This document shows positions 5,280 through 64,000 of a stretch of 64,000 nt of DNA, piece after piece; the first letter of the stretch is position 1, and every line of letters begins with the position of its first letter. The DNA is from Bilabrum cf. latius (Eukaryota): positions 744,001 to 808,000 of the forward strand of contig OZ237740.1 of NCBI GenBank assembly GCA_965178125.1. Direction: 5' to 3'. A program made the translations under genes and the position numbers. A model generated the notes under the pieces. It saw nothing but the letters and a program-made list of their open reading frames with translations. It did not search any database and was not told the origin of the DNA.

Positions 5280-7355
5280 TTACACCGCCGAGTAGCCGTC
5301 CCAGCCCATGCTGCCCAACCTCATGATCTTCCCATCTACCCTGGCCTTCTGCTTTTCCCTGTACGCCTCGATCTTGTCGAGCATGGAGGCGTCTCCCGTG
5401 CCTAGCATCCTCACGGCCAAAAGAGCGGCATTGTCCGCGTTGCCGATCGCAACGGTTGCAACCGGTACGCCCCTGGGCATCTGCACGATGGAGTGGAGGG
5501 AGTCAACGCCGTCCAGGTGCTTGAGCGGGACCGGCACCCCGATCACGGGGAGTGGGGTCAGCGCGGCGACCATGCCGGGGAGGTGGGCGGCCCCGCCCGC
5601 TGCAGCGATGATGACCCGGATGCCGCGGCCTCGGGCGGCCCTGGCGTACTCAAACATGCGGTCGGGCGTGCGGTGCGCCGACACGACCGTCACTTCGAAC
5701 GGCACCTGCAGGGTCTCGAGCAGCTTGCACGCTGGCTCCATGTGCGGCAGGTCAGAGTCGCTGCCCATGATAATCGCCACGATGGGGGGCTCCACCGTGG
5801 CCAGGGCGTCTCTTGCAGTGCGATGCACCGTTCCGGGGACGGGCTGTTCCCCAGCGACACCAGCACTCTCAGCCGAACCGGAGCCGGCACCGGCCCCGCT
5901 CGCTGCCCCCGACACGGACCCAGACAGGCTCGTATCCCCCGCGTCAGGGGCAGAGGCAGAGGGGCTAGGGGGCGGCACCAAGGCAGGATCGTTCGCCTCA
6001 CAGGGAACACCGGCCCTCCTGGCAGCAGCCAGGCAGCTGAGGAACGAGTGGGATGTCACGGTCAGATGCGCCATCTTGCGGCCTTCTCGCAGTGCCGTCT
6101 TTCCGTACCAGTGCACGCGCAGCCCGCCGTCAAATGGAACGTTCTCTAGAGGTTCCTTGAGTCCCGCCACCATGACCCCTGTGCCAGCCCCGCCCCCTGC
6201 CTCCAGCCCTACCAACCTGCTCCTCAGAGTCTCCGCCTTGGGCTCCTCGACCCCCTCTAGCAGCCACTGGTCGGTCATGCCCCCGAGGATGTTGTACATG
6301 ATGGCCCCCCCCGTGCCCTTCCTGAGTGCAGTGCTGCCAGTGGGCATCCCCGCCAGCACCCTCGCAAGCTGCTCGAACTGGGAGACTCCGCATGCCTCGA
6401 TCGTGTAGTGCCCCGTGTTGTGCGGCCGCGGCGCGCACTCGTTGTACAGCACCCGCCCGTCTTCCAGCTCGAACATCTCAACTCCGACCACGCCCGGGCC
6501 CAGCCAGCGGGAAACCTTCTTGGCCAGGGCCACCGCCCTGTCGGTTGCAACCGCCCCCACGGCGGGGGAGCCCACGTGCGCTTCACGGAGCACAGCGTCC
6601 TGGTGCTGGCTCACCACCACGGGGTACGTGGACACGGACGAATCCGAGGAGAGTCCCGGATCAGAGGTTCCAGCGGGGTTGTTTACGGCCATGATGGCAA
6701 GTTCGCGCACGAAGGGAACCCATTTTTCGGCGTAGAGCCTGAACTGCTCGTCCTCGTCGACGGCAGATGCTCGGGAGGAGTCCACTAGCCCGCCGAGCGA
6801 TGCGACCGCATCGTCGATGCCGTCTTCACTGCGGACTACAGCGTTACCTTTCCCGTCGTATGCTCCTCTGCGGGCCTTGAGTACCACGGGCCAGCCCCAC
6901 TCGCGCCCAGCCGATCGAATGTCGTCGGCTGTTCGAACCAATCGAAAGTCTCCGAGAGGCACACCCTCGTGGCGCAGAGCAACTTTCTGGGAATACTTAT
7001 CCTAGATAATTTGGACTTTCTGCGGTGACGGTACCACGGTGGCACCCGATTCAACTGCTTCTGCTAGGGCCTTGCAGTTGACATGCTCAATCTCAATCGT
7101 AGTTGCCTTGCACTGCGAGACGAGCTGGCGGACCTTGGCCTGGTCCGAAAACGAGCCAAGCATCTATCTCGCTCCCACTTGCGCCGCTGGGCAATTTGGA
7201 GTCGGATCCAGCGCCAAGCAGCTGAGCCCCAGGCTCTGCATGGACTGCACCAGCATCTGCCCCAGCTGGCCTCCGCCAAGGATACCGACATCAAATCTCT
7301 CGTCCTGGCTTACAGGTACCTACTTGGACGAGTCTAAGCCTGCTGCGGCTGCCAT
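5280..7355 (-). CDS. ADE2: Phosphoribosylaminoimidazole carboxylase (PurK-PurE fusion), 691 aa
   Basis: [21 protein letters not shown][TAG][60 protein letters not shown]; 3 TAGs; TAA stop. Confidence 0.95.
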
Positions 7356-7456
7356 ACCGAGTCTTGTGCACGGACTTTGTACGCAAGATGCGGCCGCAAA
7401 ACGGTGAACTCCTATCCGCAGTACAGTGCAATGCTACCAATTAATTGTTCGAAAAT

Positions 7457-10212
7457 GGTCGGCGCCGCGCCCAGGTAGCGGCGACGGGACCGATTTAAGT
7501 GCACGCAACTATTTCGGGGCTTTGGCCAAATCTGGAACCGCCCATTATCTTGGGTAATTTTGGTACAACGTGATAATTAGTCCTATTAAATGATTTAATA
7601 TGATAGTATCGTGTGATATTGGCTGTGGAAAATCCTGTTAGACATCGTGATGCGCACCAGTGATACCATGAAGGGTCAGTACTCCCTGTTGCTTGGGTGC
7701 GGCTACAGACGTACACAAAGAGGGTTTTTGATCAAAACGCCTAGAATCGCACCCAAATCCAAGTAGCCATCGACTGTGATATTATCTGGAAAACGTTTTT
7801 GGTTAGCGTCGTGCCAGGCCTTGCCAAAGGCAATATCGCACTGCCCTGTCCGGGACATACATCCCCTGATTACAGGGCTCATAGGAGTTACTGCGCAAAA
7901 TTGAGCCCGCAAATGTGTATTTTGACTATACTTACATCCCTTGCACCAGTTTGCGTTGAATTGATTTCGTGCCGAACCGCCGGAACTGCACTGGGTCCGC
8001 GAAGTGGAATGCCTGGCGCGGCTGGGCTTCGTTCGAGCCGAACCAAAACGCCCCCTTCGAGCGCATGTCAGCCCGTAGAACCCCGTGACGGCTGAAGACG
8101 AAACCTCAAGACTACCCTCCCGGACCGCGTTGTCGCCGTTGCTATCTGCAATCCCTGCTCCTGTGCCTGCTCGGCTGCGTCCTGCGCTTCCTGGTCCCCC
8201 AGCTCGTCTTCCTGGTCCTTCAGGTCGTCTTCGCCATCGCTGCCGTAGCGTTCAACCCCTTTCTTGTGCATGCCTGACCGCAACCGTTTGCGTTTACTCC
8301 CTGCCGTGATGCTCGAGACCGCGCTTGGCTCGCCTGCTCCTCCCCCCCGCCCAGCGCTGCTTCTTCAATGTCTGCAGCCCGCCCTTTGCCCCCGCTTTTG
8401 GTCTTACCTTTGTTCACGCCCTTCCACCCCTATGCCTTCTTGTCAGCGACGACAAATAGAAACGGCTCCAGGGACAGCTCCATCCAGCGTTCTCTACGAC
8501 AGCCTCCAGCAAGTCTGCTCCAGCCAAACCGGAACAACTGCGAGGCCAGGTCCAGGATCTGATGCTCTCCCGCTTCTCTCTGTACTCGATCAGCAAAAAA
8601 ACGTCTCGGGCAGCATTCTTAGGCTCTGGCACCCCACTAGCGAACCGTCTCTCTCGGTTGGCCAGGATCCACAGCACTGCATGCCAACGCTGCACCAACG
8701 ACCCCACCGAGCAGGGCCGCGCAACCCTGGATCGAGCGACCTTCGCCGCTGGTTGGGCGAGGCTCTCCGCCAGAAAGTGAGCATACCGTTGCCATTGCTC
8801 GGCGCAGACGCTGGGCCGCCGGTCGCCTCACCTCGCATTCTGCCTCGCCACGGGCGCAGCACGAGCACCTCAGGTCGCCCTGGATCCCCTGCCACCCGGC
8901 CCGGTGGTCCAGGTCCCGGAGCCGACCGCGCGGTGCCACAGCTCAACAGCTGCTTTCTAGTTCTCACTGCATCATTTAGATGCCTCATACTTTCCTTGGA
9001 TGTGTCGCATAGCTGCAGAACGAGCGATGAAGTAGCCACGGTCGCACATGCAGAGGCTGCCGCAGATATGCCACCAAGCTATAGATGAACTCCTGCAAGC
9101 GCCAATGCCACATTTTTAGGTGTCCAGCTAGTGATACAGACTTACAGGACACGAAGGTATGCAGAGGTAGGCCTCTTGCCGCGCACGTCCGCCAGTGCAG
9201 CGGCCGCCAGAGACAATGCGCATGCGTATGCGACTGCGCATCGAGCCTCCTCAAGGTAATTTTGCTGCTGCTAGACAATTGCCTCCTCCTTCAGCTTATA
9301 CTAGCGTTGCTACGTCCGTGAATCCAGTTTTAGAGGCTGACCGTCTAAACCTAAGGACCTGTCCGGTTGGCCTACTCGATCTCTTGCCTTGATCGAGGTG
9401 ACTACGTCTGCGAAACTCATTGAAACAGAGCCGTAGCACGTAATCTACAAATACTTTAAAGATAGCGCCATCAACGTCGCCAAATATGCATATTTATCGA
9501 TCATATCAACCAAAATCTGTCAAGCGCACCACCATCTTTGAAGCCCATTTGCAAAAATACGCCATCTTGAATTTCGCTCAAAATCTATCAAACGGAAAAA
9601 ATCCGTACGATGTTGCAGTACACGGACGGAGAAAGTGTGCAATTGGATCGTGGGCACGCCAAGACCCCATGAGGAGACCCTCATTCGGCTGCTACAATCA
9701 GCACAGCGCCCATATACACTCAAGGAAGACAAAAATTGCGCGAAACGCTGTATATTCCGATTCAATTCATACAATTCTACGCAAAACATAGAGAAAACAA
9801 TGCGAAAGCTGCCCAGGTACTGATTTCGGCTCTGCCAGAAAGCTCGCTCGGGAGTGCTACACGTACCACCCGATGCACCATCCATTTTTCAAGATCCGAC
9901 ATAAATAACCCCAAAATATGATATAATGTACAACTCTGTCTGACATAAAAATGGCGGTTTTTGAGATATTGCCTAAATCTCGAGAAAATCGCGATTGAGT
10001 GCCAGGCGAGCAGCGCCTCACCTTGTCGGACGGGCCAGTAGAGCTACTTGCCGGATCCATGACCTCGGATCCAGCGGACCAATCGAATTCAATAATCAAT
10101 TCAATGGTATTGGCATACTCTCGAAAGAATGCATTCAGTGGGAGCCGAGAAAAGTGGCTGTAAAAAATCCGGAACCCTCTCCCGTCGCCGCTGCCTGGGC
10201 GCGGCGCCGACC
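7457..10212. mobile_element. TIR DNA transposon copy A (decayed/non-autonomous), 2756 bp
   Basis: 33-bp TIRs GGTCGGCGCCGCGCCCAGG(T/C)AGCGGCGACGGGA with 1 mismatch; AAAAT on both sides (7452-7456, 10213-10217); frameshifted coding relic on the minus strand (~8068-9420). Confidence 0.85.
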
Positions 10213-13074: not shown

Positions 13075-14163
13075 ATGTCGCAGCGAGACACAGACTTCGA
13101 TCTGGTTGACCTTTTCGACGCATACACCAGCGACAGTGTTTCAAGCAGGCCAACGAGCAGGGTGGACCGAGCGATTGCGTCAGCAGTGGCACGAACATCT
13201 GCTAGATCAGCAGCTGGCGCGGATGGCCCTGCGTCTGTGTAGGTGGGGCAGAAGCGCGGCAGAACCATAGCTTCGGGCACGCGAGGCGCGCCAAAAAGGC
13301 GGAAGAGAGAGACGGGTGGGCATGAGTGCTCCGAGTGCGGAAAGGTGCTGAGCTCGATGAAAAATCTCAGGCGACATATGAGCACGGTGCATCTGGGCGA
13401 GCGCAAGCACGAGTGCACCGAGTGCAGCAAGCGCTTCGGGGAAGCAGGCGATCTCAAAAGGCATATGAGGACGGTGCATCTGGGGGAGCGCAAGCACGAG
13501 TGCACCGAGTGCGGCAAGCGCTTCGGGAGGGCAGGCCATCTCAAGACACATATGAGCACGGTGCATCTGGGTGAGCGCAAGCACGAGTGCATCGAGTGCG
13601 GCAAGCGCTTCGGGGAAGCAGGCGATCTCAAAAGGCATATGAGGACGGTGCATCTGGGGGAGCGCAAGCACGAGTGCACCGAGTGCGGCAAGCGCTTTGG
13701 GCGAGCAGGCGATCTCAAGACACACGTGAGCACGGTACATCTGGGCGAGCGCAAGCACGAGTGCACCGAGTGCGGCAAGCGCTTCGGGGAAGCAGGCCAT
13801 CACAAGAGGCATATGAGCACGGTGCATCTGGGGGAGCGCAAGCACGAGTGCACCGAGTGCGGCAAGCGCTTCGGGAGTGCAGGCACTCTCAAGACACACA
13901 TGAGCACGGTGCATCTGGGGGAGCGCAAGCACGAGTGCACCGTGTGCGGCAAGCGCTTTGGGGAAGCAGGCCATCTCAAGAGGCACGTGAGCACGGTGCA
14001 TCTGGGCGAGCGCAAGCACGAGTGCATCGAGTGCGGCAAGCGCTTTGGGCGAGCAGGCGATCTCAAGACACACGTGAGCACGGTGCATCTGGGCGAGCGC
14101 AAGTACCATGCACCGTGTGCGGCAAGTGCTTTGGGGAAGCAGGCCATGTTAAGAAGCACATGA
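13075..14163 (+). CDS. Tandem C2H2 zinc-finger protein (9 fingers; a 10th is frameshifted)
   Basis: ATG 13075 and TAG 13240-13242 read through into 29-aa/87-bp repeats HECxECGKRFGxAGxLKxHxxTVHLGERK. Confidence 0.9.
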
Positions 14164-14463: not shown

Positions 14464-16512
14464 TCACACAGACAGAACCGAAGATGTCTCCCCAGCCCCC
14501 GCCGCGCCACCGGCCCACAACGACAGGTCCCTCCCATCCACCACACGGTTCGCCAGCGCCTGCCCCGTCCGCACCTTCCACAGCACCTGCCGCAGCCTCA
14601 GCTCCGCAGCGGAACCGGCACCCTGAATGCGCGGCGCCCCCGCTTTTTTCTCGAACCCGTCCAGCAGGGCCCCCACATCCCCTGGGGGCAGCTCCTCCCC
14701 ACTCCCCTCTCCCAAAGAGGCCGCGACCTGTGGGGGCAAGCCCCCGGCCCCGGCCTCTATCGCTGGTTCTCCGCCGTCGATCACGGCCATGGCGCATGGG
14801 ACCTGCCTCAGTAGCGAGGGCACCAGGCGGGGCGCAGCGGCCAGGGGCAGCCTCACCACGGCTCCGTGGAAGCGGGCACCTTTTTTCCCGCAGGTGAACC
14901 CTGGCCGGTCGGGCCTCCATCGGGGCCCCCTCATGAGCACCTCGAAGGCTGCCTCTTCGTCCGTGATGGTGATGGTGGTGGTGGAGGGAGAGGCATCCGT
15001 GCCGTTGCTCCCTGCTTTGTTCCCACTGACCGCCTCCAGTGCCAGCTTGCACCACTCCTCGTCCGCGTAGCCCCACCGACACAGCCTAACCGGACTCACC
15101 GCCACCGAGCAGACGGTGGATTTTCCGGCGGCCCCCATCAGGAGCCTCCTCCTCTCTCTCAGCACCTCGCCTGCCGCCTCCTCGTCCAGGGGGGCCACTG
15201 ACGATCTGCCGTCCGCGGACACCTCCGCGCTTCCGATGTCCTCACTCGTCACACCCGCGTTCTACATGGCCCGGGTCATGATCTCCTCCTCAGTCGCCTG
15301 GTTCCTGCCGATTGAGGCCAGCACGACGTCCGACTGCGTGGACTCGTCCAGCACGCGCCTCCACAGGCGGTCGGCGGCACCCTGCGGTAGGGCAGTGAGC
15401 AGCGCACCTGGGTTCTGCTAGGACACGTCCTGGCCTGCCTCGGCGCGGTCGGTCGCAACGAACACGAGCCCTGGCCCCGTCCATGATGAGGCGCGCAGGG
15501 CGGCGCACGTGCTGTCCAGGTACGTGTGCGAGAGCTCTCGTGCCAGTGCACTGGAGATATGCTCGAAGTTCTTCCATCCGATGCGTGGGAACGCCTTCTT
15601 GTGCCTCGCGAGACCGATGATGTGGTCCACAGCGAGGTCAATGCTCGTTGCGTTTGCGTCGATGACTATATCGGCGTAGTCTGGATGCTCATACGGGTGC
15701 GTCATTCCGGTGAGACGGATCTTTCCTTCCTTGGATTGGGCGTACATCCCCGTTTGGTCGCGCTGCTCGCACACTTTCGGCTCGGTCGCAACGTGCACCA
15801 CGAGCATGGCCGGAACCTTGGCTTCTGATACCGAGGCGACTGTTGATACCGGGGAGGCTTCGTACTGGCCTCTCCCAATATTATCAAAGTGTTCGTGGTG
15901 CTCTTGCTCCTCCAGGAGGAAGCCTAGCTCGCTTTCAGGTCGGCCTGAGAACTCGTCGGCAAAGAAGCGAGCAGCTGCGCGGCCGATCTCCAGTGGTGAT
16001 ACCGCCGAAACAATGGCGACACTTCCGTCTTTTGTTACTCGAGCCGTTCTCATGCCAGTTCTTGCCATTTCCGAGTTGTGCTTGGATGCTGGGGCAGCCC
16101 CCAGTTGGTTGGTCTGCAAGTTGATAGCTGTGACCGTGCGGTCCGGTTGCAGGACCTTTATTCGCTCTTCAAGGGCCTTTGCTATCTCTAATTTCCCAGA
16201 ACTGTGCAAACCAATCAGCGTTATGATTAGTCCTCGATAATCTTCTGATTCGTCACGCTATTCAGCAATCTCGGCTGCTGACCGAAGGTCCTCGTCAAGC
16301 GCTCCCATGCCGAAGCCCTCGTTCTCAGTATCATCCTGAGTTTCACTGGCACTCTGCACATCCAATTCATCTAAATCTCCTATGGACAGGGTTCTCTTTG
16401 TTGCAGTGTCCCTGCTCGAAATGTCCTGCAGCTCTAGCGACAAACCACTTGGAGCTACTGCTAGCGCCACAAGCAGTACTGGCCAACGCATAGTCGCAGC
16501 GATCCAGCGCAT
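14464..16512 (-). CDS. Signal-peptide protein with an adenylylsulfate (APS) kinase-like domain and an unknown C-terminus, 682 aa
   Basis: Three same-frame ORFs joined over 3 TAGs; ITLIGLHSSGKLEIAKAL, IVSAVSP, CEQRDQTGMY, LTGMTHPYEHP; TGA stop. Confidence 0.75.
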
Positions 16513-32204: not shown

Positions 32205-32292
32205 CTGCGCGAGGCACCCCGTCCAAGCACGCAGCCTTGCGGATTCCGAACGGTCTGATTGATAGGGCATACATACAGGTAGCAGATCAGCA

Positions 32293-36796: not shown

Positions 36797-36926
36797 TGTG
36801 TGTGTGCCCCGTGCTGCTATCCATGGATTCGAATGCCACCATACAACAACAACAGCAAATGCCGAGTGGCCTGCTCGTCACACTCGACCTGAACAGCTCC
36901 ATCTGCAACTGCACTTTTGGGAGTAA

Positions 36927-48649: not shown

Positions 48650-49246
48650 GCTTCCCTGGGGTCAGACAGGTTCAGGAGACGTGCGGGCTGCAATGGTCTT
48701 CGAAGACTCTAGTACACTGGTCCACACAAGCGGTCCTATATGACCCTTATGTAAGCAATGATTCAATACAACGAGCACCAGGATCGAATTGGAGCCCGGC
48801 TACGATGTTGTGAGCAGGAGACGAATCACCCATCACTCCCGGCCGATGATGCGCCGCCGGCGGCCATGGTTCCGTTCACTCCCGGCCGACGAGTAGTCCC
48901 TGCTGGGCATACATCTGAACAGTTCCTGCATTCCACAGTATCAGTTGGCCCAAATATCTGACAATAGACGCGCCGCTGCGCCCTTAGTCTCCTTCTTGTA
49001 GTACACACTTGAATTCCACTTTATCGGTAGCCCTTCCTTGACGCTCCGCAAACCCAACTTCCTCGTGTCGATTAGTGCGATCACGCTCATACCCATGCAA
49101 AGTATGAAAATATCAATCTTAATCATGGGGACAAGAGCGAGGCCCGTCCCTTTGCTTCCATTTTGCGCAATGAGATGGATCCGATCCTAACTGCAACTGC
49201 GGCCTTGCCAACAGAGTCTCGCTCATTTGGAATCCAAAAGCCGCAA

Positions 49247-52200
49247 ATGAATGCTAAACTAAGCGCGGTATTAATTTTAGCTACACTATGCTGTGCCATT
49301 GGTGACTCCTTGCCGGTTCCACCGCCGAACGATGGGCAACGAATAGCGGCGCGGCTTCGCTTGGAATCACAAGACTATGGAACTCACCGCGACTACATGA
49401 CAATGGCCCCCAGCCTTCGCAAAGCAAATGAATCCCTTCTGTTTACTGTATAGTGCTGCAGCGGGAAGCCGATTGCTGCTCCGACACATGCTGCGGGCCT
49501 GGCATTCAAGCCTTTGGCTTCAAATGCGACTGTGCAAGGCGGATATTTCGTCCCAGATACGCGTGGTGACTTTGTATTCGCTAGCACGAAAGGATCAAGA
49601 ACTGCTTCGCCTATGGTGATCCGCGCAGTTGATTCCGCTGAGAGCGTCGATTCGCCCGCTCGATCACGATCTGACGCGGCGCTGTGCGAAGCGGCAACCC
49701 CAAATTCGTCGTACTTGCCAGTCCCAGGGGGTTGGACAGATGATACCATACCACCGACTGGGGCATGTTTGCTGTAGGACGCGTTTCGGAGGGAAGATCC
49801 CATCAGCAGCGACTGGGTGTTCCAGCGCTGGTCCGTGCAGCTCCCTGCCGAGCAGCACAGCACAGCTCCGAGCACGTGCGAGATGAGTCGATCGAGCCAG
49901 AGCGGGCTGTTCATCTCATCGACGAGCCTAGATCGGCCGGGCACCGTGGGATGTGGCCTGCAAACAACGGACCCACTCGTAAACTTTCTTGCTGAGCCGC
50001 AGCGCATCAGCCTCAACAGTGTGAGGGTGGCGAATGGTTACCTTCGGGTGGCCTTGCGGAGCTACCCAGTCAAGCAATCATTTGAAGCTGGCCTCTACGT
50101 TTCCGTGAACGGGACCCACGCTGTCGTGTTTAGCAAGGGGTCCCAAGCAGGGCTAGTGCCGGGTGGTTGTGCTCGACCTGGAGATCATGATGGGGGCACT
50201 CATGGTGCCATTGGCGCTGCCCGTGCCCCTGCCGCTGCCACTGGCGCCCGGGACCAGCCTGCCGGCTCATCGGAAGCGGCCTCACTAAACCTGATGATTG
50301 ACCTCAGTCCCGCATGGGCAAACCTGACCATGCAATGCAGCGATGGCAGCCGTCCCGTGACCGTATCTCACGAGCACGGTCTGCAGATCTGGGGGCTGGG
50401 GCATGGGGCCACAGGGGCCATGACTCTTGGCATTGGTGCTGCGCTGGGAGGACCCGGGCTCCCACCTGCCAGCCCCAGAGACCCGCCGGCGAACATATCG
50501 GTGGCTGGAATCGCTGCTGTTTCGACCGGTGCTTGGTTCGAGTCGCCTGCGGTGCTCCAGCCGATCCAAGGTCGGGCGAGGTTCACACCAGCATACTTTG
50601 GAAATTTGACGCAGGCTCGTGCGTTCGACTGGGGCGTGATTGACCCCACCTAGCAGCCGTTTAACGCAGACCCGTCGGGCGCTGCCGATTCAACGCATGC
50701 ACTGCGATTCGCGCTCGACTTTGCCAGGCGTAGCGGGCTAGCCGTCAGGCTTCCCGTAGGCAACTATTCTGTCTCCGATACGCTGTCGCTGTACCAGACC
50801 GGATCACGGTACGAGTCCTACATTCTGAAGGGACAGCGCTTGCCGCTGGACGAGGTGGTCCGTAGGAGATCGGCAGGCTAGCCAACTCGAGCCACGATCT
50901 ATTTGAGGCGGAGCTCTCCTGGGTACACCGACCCCAGTTAGGGCAAGTACGTCATCCACGTCCGACGTGTTAAGTACTAGGACCTTGGGTGGAACGCCAA
51001 GCCAAACAGCAACATGAACAACGTCATCGAGAGCGTAGACGTCGTGATCGGGGACGGAAACCCCGGCGCTGTCGGGGTCAGGCTGCGAGGGGCGCAGGCA
51101 TCCCACCTGCAGGACGTCACGGTGGACGCGGGCAGCGGCGCGATCGGGATAGCCACCCTGGCTGGGTCTGGCGGTGGGCACTCGAACGTGACTGTGCGCG
51201 GCGGTCGCTTTGGCATCGACGGGCGGCTCGCGCAGCCGGGGCCGACCCTGTCTGGCGTCGTGGTTGAGGGATCTTCATGCGCAGGGCTGGTCTACGCAGG
51301 GCTGCAAACACTCTCTTTGACGGGGGCGCGAATCGAAGTTCCAAGCGGTGTCCCGGCGGTCGTGGCTGGCTGGCCACTACCAATCCAGTTCCCGAACAGC
51401 TCTAGCAGGGGCCTTCCGTCAGGCGGCTGCATCTTGCCAGACCTGGAGGATTTCCAAGGACCTGACCCTGCTCTCTCTGGTCAGATCACTATCTCAGACA
51501 GTGGACTATCTCAGGGTGTAATTGGCAGAGGCATGCGCTTCCGATTGGGAGCTGGGGTATCATCAGTGGCCAAGAGGCTCGCAGGATAGGCGTCCTACCC
51601 GCTGATTGTAGCTAGCAACATGATCACACTTCGCAACGTCTTCCTATATAGTGCTGCTTCTCAGTAGGGGCGCGCTGAGGACCGTGCAAGCAATGTGACG
51701 TTCGTCAACCTGACAACTCTGCAGCTCTCGCCGCTGCAGTGCGCCCCTGATAGCCAAGGGGTGGCAAGGGGGCACATCGAGGAGCTCTCGGTGTCCCAGC
51801 CAATCCCCCCCTTCTACAAGCACAACTGTCCAAAGCTCGTCCCTTACCAGCTCAAGCCAGAGATTGTGGCGTTTGGAAACCGTTCGATCGGGCCAATGCT
51901 TCGACGCGGGTTTGCGTGTGGCGACGACGTGCCGCCGGTCGCACCCGACACGGTGACTCAATTCACGTATCGAGCAAGGGAATTCCCATCATTGGATGTG
52001 CCGGGGCTGGTGTCAGTCAAGGACTTTGGGGCTGTAGGTGACTCGCAGCATGACGATGCCCCTGCAATTCGTGCTGCCATTCAGGCGGCAGTTGCAGGTG
52101 CAAGCACCCTGCAATCACGCCCGTCTGTGCTGCTGCCCAAGGGGCAATTCCGCCTCAACTCCACGGTGTTTGTGCCGCCCTGCTGCCGATTAATCGGAGT

Positions 52201-53293
52201 AGGTCAGCCCCTCAGCACGATCATCTCTGGGCCCGAGGGTCTGGCAGCCCAAGACATGAGCGACCCACGCCTGGACACTGCCTTCCCACCGCCCCTGCTG
52301 CAGTTCGAAGCAGGAGAGTGTGCCGCGATGGAGGGAGCTCAAGCTGGCGATGAATTGCCAATGCTAGGTTCTGCCTTATACGCAGTCGATCTGCAGACGT
52401 GGGACACGCAGTCTAACGTGACATCCGTCATGTGGAAGGCTTCGGGCATGGTGCCTGTGTCGGCATCTAGCTCTGCCAAAGTCCACAGCCGCGCCGAGGA
52501 CTCCTCCTAGTCTGCCTAGCCAGGCATCGCAGCCATCAATTCATGGACCAAGGCCATTCGAGAATCTCCTATTCCTGCTGGACGGCTGAACGTCTGGAGG
52601 CAGGCGCACACGGATCGGGCACCCACCCTCGAGTTTACGGGTGGCACGGACGGGGAAAGGCACGCGAAGAAAGTCCCTGCCATGTCACCGCAGACAGTAG
52701 TGGGGGGTAGCACGCCGAGCAATGCCTCCATTCTTGCGATTACTTTCTACCAAGAGGACATTGGCCCGAACGGCCCGCCCTACCGTCACCTGCTCGTGCA
52801 AGGCAATCATCAGGCAGGTGGCAGCGCAGTGTTCATGCATCTCGACCCTGAGCACGCCGGGAGGTGCGACGCGCAAGTCGAGGTGCGGGACGCGGGTCCT
52901 TTCTTGGCGTATGGCATGAAAGCAGAGGGTAACATGGCCCCTCTTTGGGTGAGAAACGCCTCAAGGGTGCTCGTGACCGGCTGGGGAGGGCTTGCGTGCG
53001 CCATCCCCCGCAACCAGTCGTACCCCAAGGGTCTCGTGCAAGACCCGCCGTCCCTGGTGCGACTTGAAGGGTGCGAGCAGAGTCCAGGTGGGTGCGCTCT
53101 GTATGGTCTGATTGACTACGGTTCTGTATGCGGGGCTCATGACGGGTTCGTTGGCGTGCCGCCCACGGAGTGGACGTTCGTGGCCTCTCGCAGCAGCAGC
53201 AGCAGCAGCAGCAACGACGACGCCGCGTGGGTGACGACACCACCGCTTGTTCGCCCCGTTGCATACTACGGCTCGTAGCCGCCAAGCCTCTGA
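49247..53293 (+). CDS. Secreted protein with two Pectate_lyase_3/GH55-like beta-helix modules (~1350 aa)
   Basis: Signal peptide MNAKLSAVLILATLCCAIG; FNADPSGAADSTHAL...LPVGNYSVSDTL; GNPGAVGVRLRGAQ; VSVKDFGAVGDSQHDDAPAIRAAI; joined over TAGs; TGA 53291-53293. Confidence 0.8.
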
Positions 53294-53515: not shown

Positions 53516-55702
53516 ATGCCCCTTTTCAACAAGTTGCAGTTGGCTGCTGCCGCGCTTGGTTGCATGTTGACGCAATGTAGAAGCGCTAGAGTCCATGTAT
53601 CTCCTGAAGGGGTATGCAGTAGTCCGTATGGAACCAACAAGCAAAGCTCAAATGCGACACAGTGCACGCTTCGGATCTAGCAAGCGATTCATTCGTGCAT
53701 GTCTTACGAAGCATGCGAAGGCGTGCAGTTGAACAACGGATCCACATATCCAGTGGTTTGCAATAGGCCGAATGAGGCCGCAATTGAGTTTAATGGCACG
53801 GCAAATTTGTGGTTTGGCTCTCTTAATTAGAACAACCCTGCCACGCTGCTTGTGCAGTACGGTGGAGATCTTTGCCGCGGCATCGTCGCATAGGATGCAC
53901 TGAACCTTACGTTGTAGAACGTGAATCTAGATGCATACAGGCCCCCGTTCACACTACTTGAGGCAGTTTCGGTCGAATCAGCTCCGGGACACCAGCAGAA
54001 TGCGACCTTCACCTTCTCGAACAGTTTGGACGCGAGCATGTCGGGCCTCAGCAGCGGTTCGCAGCCATGGCTAAAGCATGTAGACACCCTATTTCCGTTC
54101 AGCTACGACGAAGATAGAGTGATAGACCCCGCGAATCCTGCTTGGAAAGGAGGGCACTGCTCGTTTTCTGCACCCTCCCCCCAGTCCGACCTGCCCGGAT
54201 CCGCGTACCAGCCTCTGCAACTGGTGAGCATGTCAAATCGGACCGTGAAGATGCCTTGCAACGGCACCGATCCGCCAAAGCCTGGCGCTCTCTTTGTTGC
54301 GAGGCACTACAGCAATCATGGTGCTGTAGTATGGTGCATTCGGTGCACCAACCTTTCCATTGCCTCGGTGGTTGTGCACGCTGGGGCGGGGATGGGGCTG
54401 CGGTGCGACCTTTGCAAAGGCACGACAGTGCTAGAATCTGGAAGTGGCGTGAGAAGGAGGCAGGAGCGCATGAAAGATACTTTACACGAGCAGCATGGTC
54501 CTAGCATGCCACCAGGGACAGGTGCTGGGCCTAGTGCTTCCAACGGGAGACTAGCCATGAGCGCGACAGCCGACGGGCTGCATTTCATGTCAACGAGGGG
54601 CGACATACAGGCGCATCAGTTGTATATTGAGGGCCAAGGTGACGACTGCATGAACGTGCACGGAAACTACATCACAATTTTGCCTCTTGGCGGCAGTGGT
54701 GGGGCCCAGGACGAGGAGTAGCGGCGGCGTGCAGGCCCCGGGAGGCACGAGAGCCCCCCGGGCTGGCTGCCGTACCGTAATGACAAAGGGGCCGGCTGGT
54801 TGACTGATCTGCCGTCGAAGCTTATCGGGGATGAAGTCAGCTTCGTCCGTGGAGACACGCTGCAGAGCTTCAACCACTCGTCTAGTCTGCTCGCTGCCGG
54901 TGGAGCACAACACGATCCTCCCGACCACCGGGCCACTGGCTAGGCCTAGAGCACGTTAGGCGAGCCGGCAACCTCGCACATCCTTGCCGCAAACTCCACG
55001 CATGTTCTCCTCGCCGATGCGTTGCCGCCTGGCTTTGAGCCGGGGCGAGATGCCATCATCTCAATCGACGCATAGCCGTCTACGGTCATAGTCACAGAGT
55101 CCGTCTTCAACCGCACCAAATCAAAGGGGTTAATGCTATCGGGGGGCCGATCAATCACCGTGCAGAATAACCTGTTTGAGTTGGTGCCTCATGCAAACGT
55201 GCTGCTGGGTAGTGGCACGTCACTGGGGTACTCGTACACGGAGGGGCCGCCCGCCCGAGGCCTTCGCGTGGGGAACAACGTGTTCGTCGGGGGGGCGCAA
55301 GGGGGTGGGGGCATAGATGGTCTAGGGGTTATCTAGCTGTCCGCGTGCGGCCAGCAGAGCTACTCACAGCGCGCATGCGTGCAGTTGCGCGAGCTGCCGC
55401 CCTTTGGGTACTTTGCAGATGTCGCCATTTCGAACAACACGTTCCATAGGCTTACCTATGTTCAACCGTTCGTGTATGCAGGGTTGGTGGACGGACTGTT
55501 AATTGAACGGAACTTGGTACTGTACCAAGGCGGCGCGCGGCCACCCACTGGTCAGGGTGACGGCTGCCTCTACGGCAATGTGGAGGGCTCCGTGGAAGCC
55601 CGAGGCAATGAGTGCGAATTTTTCGATGGAGTGCGCGGGCACCTGTCCGGAGAACCAAAGAGCTAGAGGGATTGCAGGTTCGAGTGTGCCCCAACCCTGT
55701 GA
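53516..55702 (+). CDS. Secreted right-handed beta-helix glycoside hydrolase, GH110 alpha-galactosidase-like (728 aa)
   Basis: Signal-peptide-like N-terminus; D..RPPFT, HAGAGMG, SATADGLHF, EGQGDDCMNVHG; joined over TAGs; TGA 55700-55702. Confidence 0.7.
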
Positions 55703-55884: not shown

Positions 55885-58800
55885 ATGCGAAAAGACGATC
55901 GGACCAGACAATTTGGGACAGTGAGAAGAAAACGGTATTTCCACGGCCAGCCGGCAATCTGCACCGATGAGTCGATTCACGTGCTTTTTTGTTGATTTAG
56001 CCTCCTGAATATCTCAGCAAATATACTGGCTTGAGCAAGGTAGCTTGGTTGGTCTGTTCGGATCGGGTTGCAATCCGTACCTCGACGATGGCAGACGCCT
56101 TAATGCGTGGGGCATCTTTGCGAGCCTCCTGATCTCGCTAGTGGTTGGCCTCGGAGTGTTTTCTATGCTGCTTACCGAATTCAGCGCTTCTCTCAGTATT
56201 CAGGATGCGTACAACGTCACAGATTTGGGAATTGGAGAGCCCGCGGACGGACCGTCGTCCGAAATGGAGACAAGGCTGCCCTTGCTGGACGAGCTGCTCG
56301 GCCACCAGTTCATGTTTCATCAGCAAGCTGGGGACAATTTGATTTCATTGTACAGTATTTTGCTCAGTGGGATATCCATTGCAACGCCAGTCATCGCGCT
56401 TACGCTGGCTGCGATCTACTTGCCCCTGTGCACCGATCGAAGCAGCCTGAGCCTTCGGTTCGGCGCCGTGATTAGCTTGGGCGCAGCGGCCCGATACGCA
56501 TTTCTGTGGACTTACATAGTTGAAGCTGAAATATCGTATCTCCCAATGGAGCTGTGGACTGCATTTTACCCTGTCTCGTCTGACATACACTCAGGCGAGT
56601 ACGTGAGGTTCGCATTCCTTTCGCAGCAACTGCTACTCGCTTTTTGGTTTTCCACGGCGCTGGGACTAGTCTGGGCTTTTTCGTCTAGTCGATCTACCGT
56701 CGCTATGGCAATGCAGACGATCATTCCCGTGGTCGCGGCCATCGTGCTGCAGGGGACGGGCTACCTCGCCCTCTTTCGCGAGCGGCGGCTTCTGGACCAG
56801 CTGGGATTGGGTACTGTCAGGAGGGCAGGATTGCTCCCGAGCCTAGCGTGCATTCGCAGGGCGGTCAGTGAGTTAACAGCAGCAGATGGTGCCCTGGTGG
56901 TGCCGCAGCGGGCGCTGTCCAACTGGACCGCCACCACCCTTCTCGACTTCATTGGGGGAGCTACGAGCGGTGGCATGATCAACCCGCGCCGCTCTGGGCT
57001 GGGTGTCAACTTGACAACCACGAATCTGACGGGCAATCCAGGTTCCTACTGGTTGGAGTCGCACGGCGACGACGTCATGGATGAACCCGCCTTCGTGCTT
57101 CAGCCAGCCAATCTTCAGCCGGACACGCTCGAGTTCGTTTACGAGGAGCTTCGCTTCGTGTCCATCATCGTTGTTCTTGTTGCTATTATCCTGTACCTAG
57201 GCCAGTGCATGTTTTGCGCAGCTCCTGGTCCGGCGCCTCGAAAGGGGGAGAAGATCGACGCAGATTTCTGTCAGCTCCACGACTTCGCGTGCTGCAAGTC
57301 CGTGCAGATGGCACTGCTCGAAGCGGAGGACAGGGGGTGTTGCCACGAAGAAGGCGGCCATGCAGTAAAATATCAGGAACCAGGTAGTGGTGGAGGTCCG
57401 CTCTGCTGTCAGACTGCCACAATATCAACCGGCAGTAGCAAGCCAGCGGGCTTGGGCGTGGTCTGCCTGATGGCATTCTGCGGCGTGCTGGAGGAGGACC
57501 TCGCCGGGGATGACGATGACAGCGACGATGAAGGGCAGATGTCGCTGGGAGGATCGGGTGGTCAAACCAGGAAGACTGCCCATCGGTCTCGGTCTCACCT
57601 GGCCACGACCAACGATTGGCCGTAGTACCAGCAGAGAGCCCTGGACTTCGCGAGGCAAGGCATGGCCCGCATGCACCTCGCAGGCAGGATCGCGACCGAC
57701 TCGGTCACGCCATCGCTCCAGCGAAAGAGCATGGTCAGGACCGGATCGCACCGCCGAGGCAGTACTCTAGCTGGTTCCAAGTCTATTCTCAGGCAAGACA
57801 GCGAACTGAATGGGAGCTCGAGGACGAACTCAGGAGACAACGACGGGCCCGATGAGGATGGCATTGAGAACGACACGTCCTCCGATGCGACAGGAGGGGG
57901 CAGTGTGGCCTAGCGAGAGCTGCGGCGGGTGTAGGGACCAACTTTGATGACTTTAAAGGCCCTCCTGTTCATCAGCTTGATCATGGCACATCCGGAACTC
58001 TCTGGGGTTCAGACGGGGTGCTCCCCTCTCGCCTTCTCTTCCACCATGTCTGCCGTGGCTGCTGGTGCTGTCGCCAGACGGCTCGGTCCTGAGCCCAACC
58101 TGGCGGGACTGCAAGAGCTGGAGGGAATTTTGTCATTCAATGGGAACTCTACCGGCTTATTCTTGACGGCAGGGTTAAGGCTTGGAGCTCGGGATCCACC
58201 AGCGCCAGTTTTTGCCCAGCTTGGGGCTATTTACAGGACGAATCTTCTTGCCTCGCAGCTGCACTTTGACGACATGCAGCGAGATGTGCGGTCTCGTCAA
58301 GCTTAGACTGTGATTTGGGCGATGGCGGTGCACATGTTTTCAGAGACCATTGCACTTGCTGTGGTTTTGCTCATGATGAGGCACGTGGCCTTCGTGGTCG
58401 AGCTGCGGCAGGGCACAGCGAGAAGCGAGCAGCGGAGGCGAGCTCTGCTTGCCATGCTAAGGCTGCTTCTTCACGACACGCTCTCGCCCCTAAACGCTCT
58501 GTCGCTCAGTTTGGAGGAGATGTCTGACAGCCTGGGGCAGTGGAGGAGCTACTCTCACCGGGTCCAGACTCTCGCCATCAGGTACCGGAAGAGCCGACCA
58601 TCTAGGTCAGAGGGAAGGAACAACTCGAGCGACTCAATTCGCCGGAAAGGCAACCTCATAGGCTCGATGGGATCGATCAGCAGTCGTCAGTCGGACGCCA
58701 TCCATCGCAAGCCGAGCCAAGTCGAGCACGCAGCTGTCTCTAGCTTGCAAAGTCCCAAAGACGTTGTGTCAATGATGATTGCAACGGCAGCGGAGCCCAC

Positions 58801-61800
58801 AGTCGAGAGCCCCACGCAGCCAGCTGGGGCCAGCTCCGGAAGCGCAAGCACCAACACATCCAGGGGACGGACGACGCGGAAATCCAAGGGCACACCACGA
58901 GGCGGCTCCGGATCTGCGTCCCCGCAAACTGACCACTCGCGTAGTAGCCGCGGCAGTGGGAATCTCAGCAAGATTGAGCGGGCCAAGCTTCGAGGAGCTC
59001 CTCGGACATCTCTGCTGAAGGAGATGCAGACACTGCGGAAAGACGTGGTGCCTGCCATGGCCTCATCGGCTGGTGGCATCCAGCGAATCCTGAGTGACAT
59101 GGTGAGCCTTCAGGATGCCCAGAACGGTAAGCTGCGCTTGGCGATGGAGCCAACGAATCTTGGACAAGCGGTCAGCGAGTCCATCTTTAGAGCATTTCGC
59201 GCTCTGGCTTCGACGTACCAGGTACAGCTGGAGCAGTGGGCAGACTAGGTGGCCGACAGCACCAACTACGAAGAGATGATGGTGAGGTCGTTCAGCAGGC
59301 AGTATGTGGCTCCTGGCCTCGTGAAGCAGGTTGCAACCAGGGTCAAGCTATCCTCTCGCTTGACTGGCGATGGGCAAGCAGGGCTCGATTTCCTCACGCT
59401 CGGGCTGATGGACGCCACTAGGACCAATGGTGAGGACAGCGATGACACAGCTGACTTGCCACGGGCCGGCGCGCGGGCGATGGTGCCCTTCAAGGACGTG
59501 TCTGGAGCCTAGCATCGGACAGCAGCCACAGAAATGGCCGCTATGGTTGTGCCTGAGCAGGTGGCGGAGCATATCCCCCTCGCGGCTCAGCTCCTGTACA
59601 AGCCAGCGTGGGGTCTTCTGGTGGAGTAGCAGTCTATCCTAGTCATGTGCGACCTTCCAAGGCTGCAGCAGTGCCTGGCCAACTACTGCTCCAACGCACT
59701 AAAGTTCTCCAAGAGAAAATAGGAGGACGTGTAGCACGAAGCACGCGAAAGGCCGCGTTCCAACCTATCCAGGGTGCCTACCGAGCAGAGGAAGAGCCTG
59801 CATGCCGTTATGCAGAGTCGTCGGGGGTCCGATCGCCACCAAACCAAAATGAGCATGGCGTCGGGGATGCAGGTCTCCATTGACCACTCGCGCAAGAACT
59901 CTGGCACTCCAATGACGGGCACGCGCCGCTTGTCCAATGGCAAGCGCCCATCGGTATCACAAGCCAGTGCGCATCCGCCTACAATGCGCAGCTAGCAGGT
60001 GCCGAGTGATGGTAGTCACAACGCAGACGTCGTGGGCCGTACGACCAGCCAGACTGATTAGGTTGTAGGTATGTCATGGAGGCAGGGAACGATAGGGTCC
60101 AGGAAGACGTCCGGTGAGTCGCTTGTGTCTGCCGCACACAAGCGCTTGTCAGGAGCCCGGGCATCAGATCACGACATCAGCTAGTTGCAGTCTCCTGGGG
60201 TGCTAAACAGCAGCGGTGTGACGAATGGATCAACGCCCGAGTAGCAGGCCACCCGACGACTCACGGATGCTGGGGATGTATCCCAGCAAGCTAAACAGGC
60301 GCACACGAAGACAGCGTCACGACCGAAGCGACTTGAGCAGCAGGCCTCGCTCGGAGCCACTCGCAGGCGGCCTTTGCCGCCTGCTGTGTCGAGTCACACC
60401 ATTGATGACGCGCCCGGCACATCCTCCGGTCAGCCGCAGGCCTCGGGGGTCCCACGCATGCCGAGCGCTTCAAACTTCTCGGATCGATCGAGCGACTCTA
60501 GGCACCGGCCTAGAGGTGTGGGGCGTGTATCTGCCCACATCCAGGTCGAGCGCGGGCCCTCTACCGGCCCCGCGGAATCTCCGTCATCCCACACGCAAGA
60601 CGGCAAACAAGGAGGGCAACCGAGCGACAAGACCTCCAACAGCCTACCAGAGAGTGGTGTGGTGATTGGGACAAGCGAGCTGCCGCCGCCGTTATGGGAC
60701 TATGACGCGCTTGAGAAGTCTGGAACGCTGGGCCCCACACGGCTCGCGGCCTTCAGGGCGATGCTTTCGAACCTTCGATCACACAGGAGGGCTTTAAAGA
60801 GGAGAAGCTAGACGACGGCCGGGACGGCGCACGGCGGCAGAGCTGAGCACAAGCGCCGAGGCAGCATTAAGTAGAGGCGATCCAGGCGATTCAGTATCAA
60901 GGAACTCACGAGCCCTCGGAACAAGAGAGCCTCCACCAGTGCGGTTGATGCGCACACCGCAGCGGTAGAGCAAGATTCTCCAGAGTCGCCGCCGCATGGC
61001 TCCACGGCAAAGGTGTCACCAACTCCCGCAGGTGTAGAGCCTGCTCATTCGCCTACAGGTGTGGAGACAGGCAGCTCCAGCTGGTCCCAGATCCAGACTA
61101 CCATGCTAAATGCGGTGTCGCCCAGCACCTCCAGAGCATCTCGACCGAGGCTCAGGGACCTAATCGCGACTTGGGTCACCTGCCAGGCGGGGCGCACGCA
61201 GACCATGATGCTGGCTGGGCTGCGACAGCATTGTGCCGATATGCTGCACCAGCAATCGGTTGTGGCAGCGTCTGCATCGGCCTCGGCTTCTAGCATCATC
61301 GATCATGGTGAGAATGTTCACCGCCAGCGCTTTGATTTCTCTGCAGCTCCTGCGATGATCGGACGCAATGATGGGGGTCACGGTGCTCCAGTCAAGCTGA
61401 TGCCAGTCTTGCCCACCGAGCGCGGGAGGACCTCGTCAATGCCCCCATCGCCGCGGTGGCCCTCGCTCAAGGCGAGGCACGGTGGTGCGGCTGCAGCTGC
61501 GGGGATCGGCACCCCCTTGCACCCCGTACAAGAATCTGACACGACTTCGCGCACGCGAGGCAATTCGACAGCGACCAGCAGCAGGCAGAGGTCGAGGGAC
61601 CCAAGCTCCAGGGCAGTCCATGATGGGGACGTGGAGGCGAGCAGCAAGGACAGCAGTCCTACCACAGGCACTGGGAGTGGAACGGTCACAGGCACTGGAA
61701 CCGGGACAGGGACAGGAACAGGCACTGGGACCGGCACAGGGACAGGGGGCACCGGTTCAAGGCTTGCAAGCGCTTCGAAGCACGCGGCGAAGCACGAGGC

Positions 61801-63064
61801 CAATGCTGCGGTGGCTCACGACGTCGACCCGCAAGAACCCGACTCGATCCGTGCGATCCGCAACGTTCTTGACCACGCTCACACCAAGAGAATGCGAGAG
61901 ATGGCGGAGATTTCTCGGGGTGCTCGCACCATATCCTTCTGGGTCTGGGACGACGGAGCGGGGATCGCTGCGAAGGACAGGAGACGAGTCTTCCAGCCCT
62001 TCTCGCAGATCGACGCCAATCTGCAGCAGGAGGGTAAGGGCAGCGGGCTGGGGCTCGCCATCACGGAGAGCATCGTCAAGCTGCACGGCGGGGCGGTCGG
62101 CTTCATGTCGGCCAAGGGTGTGGGGGCGATATTCTGGGGCTGGATCCGGTGCAGCACGCAATGGGAAGCACCGGGCAAACAGCTGTCTGGCCGCAATTTG
62201 GGCGCAGGAAGCGAGCACGTGTCTGAGGCAGATGAGGGCGGTCGGGACAGTCCCAGGGCACAAGGCTCCTAGCATCAAATCAGCCCCCCGGCAAAGAAGG
62301 CCATCCTAGGACCCAGGGCGGCTGACCCCTCCGCGGGCAAAGAGGGGTTTGCTGGTGCTGGGGGTTCGGCTGCTTCGGGTGCAAGGAGGGGGTCCCACAG
62401 AGGATCCCTCAAGCCGGCTCCGTTGATGCCCCGCCGCCTGCTGTGCGTGGACGACGAGCGGTCGAACCGGAGGCTGCTCGCCAGCGCCGTGCGCCGGCTG
62501 GGTATCAGCGAGGTGTATGAGGCCACAGACGGGATAGATGCCCTTGTGAAGCTGGGCGTGCCTCGCAGGCTGTGGGTGGGGTACAAGGGAGCCAAGGCAG
62601 GGGACGTCACCCCCCCGGGTGGGGTCACTGCGGGGAACAAGGACACAGGTTTGGCGGCGGGGGGTGCAGCTGGCAAGGGCAGAGCCGAGGTTCGTGGCAG
62701 TGCGCCCACGGCCGCCCAGGTGGCACCAATGCCGGAAGGTTTGCCCGCCGACGCGTCGTCGGGCTCCATCCCAGGCGATGTGGAGAACTTGCCACAGGTG
62801 AGGCTGGGACCTGGCGACGTCATTCTGATGGACTACAGCATGCCGCTCATGGGAGGCGCGCACTGCACTAGGAGCATACGATCAGATCCTCGGTATCGCG
62901 GTGTTCGTGTTATCGGCGTGACGGGCAATGTGCTGCTCGAAGATCAGCAGCGCCTGATATCGGCAGGTGCCGAACGCGTCCTGCCAAAGCCCGTCCTCCG
63001 AAGGACTCTGTAGGCCGCATTGATGTCTGCACCCGCTCGCCGACGGGCAGGAATCGCGATTTGA
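55885..63064 (+). CDS. Multi-TM hybrid sensor histidine kinase/response regulator (~2360 aa); probable intron 55921-56017
   Basis: H-box LHDTLSPLN (58472), N-box RLQQCLANYCSNALKFS, G1 VWDDGAGI, F-box VFQPFSQ, G2 GSGLGLAI, receiver VDDE..ILMDYSMP..GVTG..KP; all fragments share one frame; TGA 63062-63064. Confidence 0.9.
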
Positions 63065-63559
63065 AAGGCCACAGTAGGTTACACTTTCTCAAGTGCAATT
63101 ACATTGCTATAAGCAAAAAAAAAAGAGAAATCCATCATCGCTTCACCTTCCAGCGCTGTCCAGGTAATCTTCCATTCGTTGCACCTCAAGCACTCCTTCG
63201 TTGACAAGTTGTTTAGCTCCTTCTGAATCAACGTACTGCTCCCTGAATCTGCTCTACACATAGAGCTTCATGGCTAGCCTGTCGTCTACGGTTCTGCATC
63301 GAGCTGCTGCCCTCAAGCAACGCCGGTACAGCGAGCAAATGGATCGTCTGACGGGAGTAGGGAGACGAATCATGCACAATGATTCTTTAAGTTATCAGTT
63401 GCCCCGTCGAATCATCTGCGTTTAGCAGAATTCTATTTGTACAAGACATACTTGTCGCGTTCATCTTCATTTCAAGAAGTGCACTCGTCATCATTTGATG
63501 AAGAATCGCCGATTGTGCAGATGGCTTTTCCTCGCGTACAGTGCAAACCATAACAGGTC

Positions 63560-64000
63560 ATGGACTATGGTAGCGGTTTCGGGGATATATTGCATCATGC
63601 AGATTCCCAGAAGTTGCGACATTTGTGCTAGGTTGCTCCCCTTGCGACAGCAGAGATGCTGAACTTCCACCGCTACGGGACACTGCAACAGTCTAGCTTT
63701 CACTTGTTAGCCCGGGCTGAATCTCTTGGGGATGAGAAACTAGTGGCGATTGAGTCTGCTAGGGCTGGATTTGGCGTTCCTGTTGGTCTAGATGCCACAG
63801 GGAGATCACCCTTGCACGATGCTGTGGAGGCTTGCTCCCACAGAGTTGTAGACGCGCTTCTAGACGCCGGGGCTGAGCCAGACTTGACAAGCGATGGTTG
63901 CGGATGCAGTTGCTTATACTTGGCGGTGCGTCGGGGAGATACAAGCGTGGTGGCGTCGTTGCTAAGGAACGGGGCAACCGCAGACTTCAGCAGCGACTCT
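63560..64000 (+). CDS. Ankyrin-repeat protein (5' part, runs off the window)
   Basis: ATG 63560, one TAG, then GRSPLHDAVEACSHRVVDALLDAGAEPD and GCSCLYLAVRRGDTSVVASLLRNGA. Confidence 0.8.

Follow-up and report, generated by a model that had tools for sequence, protein, structure and literature searches.

Which codons end translation in this genome, and what is UAG doing inside its genes? The question is posed by a 64,000-nucleotide stretch of contig OZ237740.1 (assembly GCA_965178125.1, positions 744,001 to 808,000 of the forward strand), referred to here in its entirety as the window, in which long protein-coding frames are crossed by TAG triplets and are closed by TAA or TGA. The reading favoured from the sequence evidence, with a probability of about 0.88, is that UAG is a nuclear sense codon for glutamine (Gln, Q), that UAA and UGA act as the sole terminators, and that the source is a compact, GC-rich protist, probably a stramenopile near the bicosoecids (for example Cafeteria). 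Nuclear code changes are rare and the parting of UAG from UAA is rarer still, the papers cited below naming for it a single fornicate, a single rhizarian and a single green alga besides a few ciliates. A further independent case, in another supergroup and in a GC-rich genome, bears on (i) why Gln should so often capture UAG, and (ii) whether GC pressure, in making UAA and UAG rare, opens the way to reassignment.

The frequencies of the three triplets in and out of frame provide the broadest evidence. Fourteen host coding segments, amounting to 15,012 codons, were defined in frames chosen to be free of TAA and TGA, and these hold 112 TAG, 0 TAA and 0 TGA, the two zeros being partly circular in that the frames were defined without these codons. 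When the same DNA is read in its other two frames (29,996 trinucleotides) there are 224 TAG, 102 TAA and 497 TGA. The off-frame rate of TAA and TGA together, 2.0%, leads to an expectation of about 300 in frame, where none is seen, whereas TAG occurs at 0.75% in frame and at 0.75% off frame. Since TAG is as frequent in frame as out of it while the in-frame count of TAA and TGA is zero, selection purges TAA and TGA from these frames and does not act against TAG. The extent of the frames is supported independently by Pfam domains, by C-termini that match those of homologues (RPT4 and ADE2) and by the ends of transcript-like contigs. Pfam domains of ten known families were recovered, every one of them in a TAG-containing frame, namely ADE2 (with PurK and PurE), a C2H2 zinc-finger array, an APS-kinase-like protein, a dual-specificity phosphatase-like (DSP-like) protein, a HEAT-repeat transportin-like protein, RPT4, SpoU, PDS5, a pectate-lyase-like protein and a hybrid histidine kinase. 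In the case of ADE2, RPT4, SpoU, PDS5, the transportin-like protein, the DSP-like protein and the hybrid histidine kinase, the domains emerge solely if translation continues through TAG.

Treating TAG as sense also lengthens the frames, on both strands, with stop-to-stop frames of at least 300 codons rising from a total of 9,825 codons under the standard code to 28,046, and the longest from 749 codons to 2,352. Frame length alone is not the argument, however, because reading TGA as sense likewise lengthens frames in GC-rich DNA, giving a total of 27,546 codons with a longest frame of just 949. Within the coding segments TAG represents about 15% of the Gln-type codons (112 of 737, with CAA:CAG at 145:480). 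In 15 of 112 cases (13.4%) its neighbour is a CAR Gln codon, a frequency that no residue surpasses, with Q itself at 12.2%. This is weak evidence, as is the TAG at 27692, which stands at the start of six consecutive Gln codons in the DSP-like protein.

Are TAA and TGA, then, both genuine stops? The 15 frames are terminated by TGA in 11 cases and by TAA in four, and no frame needs TAG as its stop. Two of the conserved genes end where their homologues do. ADE2, a PurK-PurE fusion on the minus strand (5280..7355; Pfam AIRC 3.4e-65, ATP-grasp 3e-42), has 691 codons with three TAG (7320, 7164 and 7002), and alignment to PurE structures reaches residue 688 of 691, such that its TAA stands three residues further on, at the natural C-terminus. 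RPT4, a 26S proteasome ATPase on the plus strand (35424..36918, with matches in the PDB down to 1e-172), carries two TAG (35783 and 35813) and closes with a TGA at 36794-36796 after ...DYSKV, the same C-terminus as in stramenopile homologues; its start at ATG 35424 is our own reading of the sequence. Neither is TAG depleted towards the ends of genes; the final 280 codons contain four (1.4%, compared with 0.75% overall), and four genes carry a TAG between 5 and 17 codons upstream of the terminal TGA or TAA. If TAA tracked TAG in the ratio of CAA to CAG then 33.8 TAA would be expected in frame. Because none is observed where some 34 would be expected, and because none occurs in a gene rich in A-ending codons that is described next, TAA is not a sense codon as far as the 64-kb window shows.

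This last gene lies in a distinct part of the window. Bases 1 to ~5150 have a GC content of 21-34%, in comparison to 50-69% for the remainder, and this AT-rich segment, which is cut by the left edge of the window, adjoins the 3' end of ADE2. Its main gene (290..3088, minus strand) encodes a Prim-Pol and P-loop protein (Pfam Prim-Pol 8.6e-14) of 932 codons at 30% GC, with 24 CAA, a single CAG, 11 TAG and no TAA other than the terminator. Small frames at 3119-3331 and 3364-3573 likewise all contain in-frame TAG. The segment looks like a putative mobile or virus-like element that uses the code of its host, and would as such point to mobile DNA or viruses matched to that code. A pattern scan of IMG/VR viral contigs found no relatives of the Prim-Pol protein. 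According to the accessible text of PMC13524828, all confirmed giant-virus isolates come from hosts with the standard code.

That the TAG codons persist in what appears to be spliced RNA follows from public sequencing runs, of which X1-X4 are DNA-like, with all sampled words present, and X5-X7 hold 41-87% of the sampled words. Contigs from the runs were compared with the window over the region 26000-45900 (19.9 kb). X1 gives one 42-kb contig without joints at introns, whereas the contigs of X5-X7 are about the size of genes and leave out four short stretches bounded by GT and AG, as spliced RNA would. One of these introns (30536-30631, 96 nt) belongs to a plus-strand transcript-like unit (30411..32271; spliced X5 and X7 contigs) with five TAG in exon 2 and a TAA at 32202-32204; another (35101-35196, 96 nt) to a minus-strand transportin/importin-beta-like gene (32287..35313; Pfam HEAT families; spliced X5, X6 and X7 contigs) with seven TAG in exon 2 and a TGA at 32293-32295; and the remaining two (35516-35606, 91 nt, and 35686-35779, 94 nt) to RPT4, where the joints are found in X5, X6 and X7. 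Both 96-nt introns are open in frame, and frame scans run straight through them. The presence of introns means that the DNA is nuclear.

Across this region four runs from three studies show no letter differences from the window and no indels. The X5-X7 contigs retain 26 coding TAGs, as judged by comparing contig ranges with the codon list, and 14 of these are in contigs that also contain a splice joint (seven in the transportin-like gene, two in RPT4 and five in the 30411-32271 unit). The coverage takes in a SpoU/TrmH-type RNA methyltransferase (36923..38617, plus strand; six TAG, TAA at 38544-38546; Pfam SpoU_methylase 1.1e-19), which is spanned by one X5 contig with 0 other letters, and a PDS5-like cohesin-associated protein (39069..44567, plus strand; six TAG, ending in TGA; Pfam PDS5 3.2e-49), where an X5 contig from 41203 to 44647 passes over four of the TAGs, again with 0 other letters; a PDB search with the PDS5 N-terminus gave no match. 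A 1,297-codon frame of no known family (44756..48649, minus strand; five TAG, ending in TGA) is covered from 44748 onward by an X5 contig that passes over two TAGs. Because the spliced contigs keep TAG letter for letter, RNA editing, splicing-out and sequencing error are excluded for the genes that the contigs cover. The contigs of six genes end between 6 and ~125 nt past the TAA or TGA.

Which amino acid is inserted at UAG is addressed by the columns in which TAG falls when the proteins are aligned with their homologues. The closest relatives were found for the transportin-like protein by a full HMMER search. They originate from assemblies of Logan, ENA and JGI, with identities of 98% (P0121), 93% (P0122), 59% (P0123), 57% (P0125), 48% (P0178) and 37% (P0124). 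At its seven TAG sites these relatives offer 11 aligned residues, of which eight are Q, two S and one G, and Q is present at all three of the sites covered by a 93-98% identical relative. A likelihood decoding was also applied, where each of the 20 residues is scored by how query residues of the same kind behave in alignment with the same sequences. On the close relatives this gives a log-likelihood of -16.7 for Q, with E next at -34.7, a margin of 18 units. With 142 more distant homologues (715 residues: N 131, Q 87, E 71, S 69) Q is still first, narrowly, at -1963 versus -1973 for K. With exon 2 of the transportin-like gene, a homologue search in the near-length class gave none at E <= 1e-10.

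The more strongly conserved proteins add individual columns. In RPT4 the TAG at 35813, in the context GEVLKqL where q marks the TAG codon, is opposite Q in 88 of 119 homologues, the others having R (23), P (6), A (1) or H (1). In ADE2 the TAG at 7002 (IIqDKYSQK) is opposite Q in both of the structures shown, 3ax6 and 3k5h, and for the TAG at 7164 the residue is Q in the former and H in the latter. Opposite the SpoU TAG at 37632, the structure 1gz0 has the Q of its HQG motif; taken by itself, this part of the alignment scores below threshold. The DSP-like protein (26180..30013, minus strand; 14 TAG, ending in TGA; Pfam DSPc 7.6e-15), which has a long low-complexity tail, has its TAG at 29960 (EAAqDLEF) opposite H in DUSP19 and Q in DUSP10. 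Correspondence with Gln holds for the close transportin relatives, for RPT4 35813 and for ADE2 7002, and does not extend to every column.

These results can be set against what the initial annotation had proposed from the letters of the window. Its description of TAG in frame in genes closed by TAA or TGA is confirmed, and the pattern extends to the left of where the annotation began, into the Prim-Pol gene with its 11 TAG. The four TAGs that it cited are all in place at 7002-7004, 35813-35815, 34141-34143 (minus strand, transportin-like, PDRDqDIR) and 29960-29962, and the SpoU motif ESLNVS does lie downstream of two TAGs (38328 and 38367), with three more further upstream. Its central claim, that UAG encodes Gln while UAA and UGA remain stops, fits the codon counts, the homologue columns, the close relatives, the spliced transcript-like contigs and the TAA-free AT-rich gene.

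How would such a code operate, and what would it permit? By analogy with other lineages where UAG has passed to Gln, decoding would fall to a tRNA-Gln whose anticodon is CUA, or to a Gln tRNA that is capable of reading UAG, and the release factor eRF1 would have lost efficient recognition of UAG with recognition of UAA and UGA kept. Under the proposed code a C-to-T change at CAG would be synonymous, and this would account both for in-frame TAG being as frequent as off-frame TAG and for the 290-3088 gene having exchanged nearly all of its CAG for TAG and CAA.

A number of observations weigh against the assignment of UAG to Gln, or against the evidence used for it, in addition to the partial circularity of the zero counts. 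Several TAG columns are not Gln: at transportin-like sites 45 and 55 the sole close relative with coverage has S; the RPT4 TAG at 35783 falls in a column that is V in 106 of 117 homologues and S in Cafeteria, a column that drives the decoding from RPT4 alone to place C just above Q (-1052 vs -1061); the DSP-like TAG at 29726, in the P-loop, is opposite V in all five alignments shown; and the TAG at 63011 of the hybrid histidine kinase (56165..63064, plus strand; 17 TAG, ending in TGA; Pfam HATPase_c 1.8e-16, Response_reg 3.1e-13), which is inside the alignment of its receiver domain with 6qrj, is opposite R. We read these columns as variable positions rather than as a sign of another residue. 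The kind of run that X5-X7 represent is only guessed ('RNA?', with X5 'probably DNA'), so the transcript reading rests on the intron-skipping joints. The 64-kb window contains no tRNA gene, no Rfam family and no eRF1 gene. Finally, the placement of the source organism, which is considered below, comes from the single gene RPT4, with long branches for the window and for Cafeteria and with few named non-stramenopiles in the set.

Four other explanations have to be considered alongside the assignment of UAG alone to Gln. One is that UAG is ambiguous, specifying Gln inside genes and termination near the 3' end of some mRNAs in the manner of Condylostoma, karyorelict ciliates and Blastocrithidia. 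Codes of this type exist (PMC4967479; 10.1101/2022.04.12.488043), and in the four genes with a TAG 5 to 17 codons before the stop an early ending would cost little. Such a code is nonetheless unlikely here given that none of the 15 frames needs a TAG stop, a number of genes too small to exclude rare use, that TAG shows no depletion over the last 280 codons, that the TAG at 63011 is within the receiver-domain alignment, and that RPT4 and ADE2 end with TGA and TAA, respectively, where their homologues end. Very unlikely is a ciliate-type code (NCBI table 6) in which UAA and UAG are both Gln, UGA is the sole stop and TAA is merely rare through high GC. The joint reassignment of UAR is the commonest stop-codon reassignment in eukaryotes (PMC5304391, in the text available), and TAA is the rarest of the three triplets off frame, at 102 of 29,996. 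Yet the in-frame TAA predicted from CAA:CAG, about 34, are all missing, the 290-3088 gene combines a CAA:CAG ratio of 24:1 with 11 TAG and not one in-frame TAA, the ADE2 TAA comes just three residues after the last one aligned to PurE, and the transcript-like contigs run on for 71 nt beyond the TAA in SpoU and for 67 nt in the 30411-32271 unit.

The identity of the residue might also have been misjudged, and Glu, Leu, Tyr, Ser or Lys, for example, could be meant, each having been reported elsewhere as the meaning of UAG or UAR, including Leu for UAG in a rhizarian and Ser in Scotinosphaera (PMC11687900). The distant transportin columns are mixed, with K just 10 log units behind Q, and at site 320 the distant homologues favour E (25) over Q (19). 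Another residue is nevertheless more improbable still than a table 6 code when set against the close relatives, with Q in 8 of 11 positions, including three out of three in the 93-98% relative, and their 18-unit margin, against the Q of the conserved columns at RPT4 35813 and ADE2 7002, and against the TAG that opens the poly-Gln run. Least probable of all, to a degree that makes it barely credible, is that the TAGs are untranslated and go back to errors in sequencing or assembly, to pseudogene decay, to RNA editing or to remnants of introns. The TAG at 35783 does stand three bases past a 3' splice site; however, four runs from three studies agree with the window at every letter of the 19.9 kb compared, spliced contigs retain the TAGs, 112 TAG with neither TAA nor TGA in 15,012 codons is incompatible with random decay, and introns were found only at 91-96 nt, four in six genes.

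From what kind of organism does this DNA come? No 18S gene is present in the window, and the evidence is provided by RPT4, where the best organism-named matches are nearly all stramenopiles, with Phytophthora at 83% identity, Cafeteria at 81% and Tribonema and Ectocarpus at 80-81%; a plant (P0001) and an ostracod (P0004) depart from this pattern, both with partial coverage and identities of 73-75%. A quick maximum-likelihood tree of 118 rows, from which P0001, P0002 and the window's own fragment P0003 were dropped, places the window as sister to Cafeteria roenbergensis (SH-aLRT 90), within a clade of six that has a support of 96. With moderate confidence, and on sequence comparison, the source is taken to be a stramenopile, probably close to the bicosoecids. 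The initial annotation had spoken of a GC-rich protist lineage, of which the GC-richness stands and the lineage is now narrowed, on the RPT4 gene only. An origin in the aphelids was considered as well and rejected, as RPT4 points to stramenopiles and Amoeboaphelidium is listed with UAR as Gln in the available text of PMC5304391.

The code may not be restricted to this one organism. Two of the transportin fragments, P0121 and P0125, break off immediately before a codon that is CAG in the window. The P0123 cluster includes P0273, which is identical to P0123 but for its first residue, and between P0125 and P0273 10 query residues (227-236) are missing, beginning with the one encoded by this CAG of the window. 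A longest contig of 4,215 nt is recorded for each of P0125 and P0273, and from this equal record the two are inferred to be on one contig. As such a gap is what a TAG gives under standard-code gene calling, the arrangement suggests that the relatives share the UAG = Gln code. There is a practical side to this, in that gene callers set to the standard code split the proteins of the source organism, an effect shown in public protein sets by the pieces P0003 and P0121-P0125, and because the proteins are cut into pieces in this way its genes are mis-annotated in databases.

How does this code compare with those already described? The closest counterpart is the fornicate Iotanema spirale, where nuclear UAG is read as Gln and the stop function stays with UAA and UGA (Panek et al. 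2017, PMC5304391). The codon table is the same, with UAG alone reassigned, and to Gln, but Iotanema is a metamonad, in contrast to the GC-rich stramenopile candidate of the window with TAG at ~15% of its Gln-type codons. The same UAG-only change to Gln is given for Protocruzia tuzeti and for two phyllopharyngean ciliate lineages (McGowan et al. 2024, PMC11687900), and has hence arisen independently several times; these are ciliates, whereas the window groups with stramenopiles by RPT4. The UAR codes of table 6, listed for many ciliates, Hexamita, Streblomastix, ulvophyte green algae and Amoeboaphelidium protococcarum (PMC5304391, PMC11687900), resemble that of the window in the capture of a stop by Gln and differ from it in that UAA is also Gln, while in the window TAA is absent from the frames and closes four of 15. 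The rhizarian exLh, where UAG is Leu (PMC5304391), and Scotinosphaera, where it is Ser, share with the window the uncoupling of UAG from UAA and depart from it in the residue (PMC11687900). Code 15 crAss-like phages (PMC9523058) also have TAG as Gln on paper, but theirs is a phage-encoded switch within standard-code bacteria, unlike the nuclear DNA with spliceosomal introns seen here.

The UAG-only Gln code is therefore in itself of a known kind, and it is its occurrence in a stramenopile lineage that appears to be new within the literature searched. A full-text search, which extended to open-access main texts, returned no report of a nuclear code change in a stramenopile; the source runs date from 2025, so that a description outside its reach is possible. 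For UAG-only Gln the literature searched gives Iotanema and some ciliates, and no stramenopile; nothing of relevance came from PMC12152300. The background offered by the initial annotation, that UAA and UAG are usually reassigned together and that Iotanema is a UAG-only case, was sound and incomplete, omitting Protocruzia tuzeti and the two phyllopharyngean lineages described in the text available, and its suggestion that the case is possibly unreported holds as far as this search reaches. A broader proposition, which we regard as evenly balanced between true and false, is that this would be the first nuclear code change in the stramenopiles, an independent capture of UAG by Gln in a clade of uncultured or metagenome relatives. 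This clade would have an AT-rich mobile or virus-like element of its own, in which the Prim-Pol gene would have drifted to TAG about as freely as composition allows. If true, it would provide a host-and-element pair with which to ask how a change of code cuts a lineage off from its viruses and mobile DNA or ties it to them.

The remaining genes of the window extend the same pattern of TAG load and termination. The C2H2 zinc-finger array (13075..14163, plus strand; one TAG, at 13240, ending in TGA; Pfam zf-H2C2_2 2.3e-58) consists of nine near-identical fingers in tandem with the unit HLGERKHECTECGKRFG..., which suggests that it arose by recent internal duplication. The APS-kinase-like protein (14464..16512, minus strand; Pfam APS_kinase 3.8e-18) has three TAG in its ATG-started frame and ends in TGA. 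A frame of 2,137 codons with no known family (19515..25928, minus strand) has 22 TAG and ends in TGA; a homologue search in the shorter class gave one match, P0271, which is 91% identical over residues 664-834 and spans no TAG, and six tandem copies of a 14-residue unit, DGPTEQPLGTAKEV, are found at ~20200-20460 on the minus strand. In the DSP-like protein the motif at 29717-29740 (minus strand) reads HSVDGxSR, where x is a TAG codon, in place of HCxxGxxR, and with the catalytic Cys replaced by Ser the protein may be a pseudophosphatase.

Towards the right of the window are two adjacent, secreted-looking beta-helix proteins, one with a pectate-lyase-like domain (49175..53293, plus strand; 11 TAG, ending in TGA; Pfam PF12708 1e-18) and the other resembling GH110, an alpha-1,3-galactosidase-like family (53516..55702, plus strand; 10 TAG, ending in TGA; PDB 9i4f 1.8e-8 and 8pvs 1.3e-6), for which the homologue alignments gave no usable TAG columns. 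When compared, the two (49175-55702) proved not to be paralogues; both may serve a predator or parasite in degrading glycans. Between ADE2 and the zinc-finger array is a tandem duplication of ~2.76 kb (7452-12984, with copies at 7452-10217 and 10213-12984) that is 82% identical overall and 87-95% identical in its best blocks. Its mismatches are without three-base periodicity and it has no Pfam match, hence it offers no paralogue test of TAG; it is probably non-coding or decayed. Lastly, the genes are tightly packed, with neighbouring transcript-like contigs lying 5 to 16 nt apart, as at 32271-32287 and 36918-36923.

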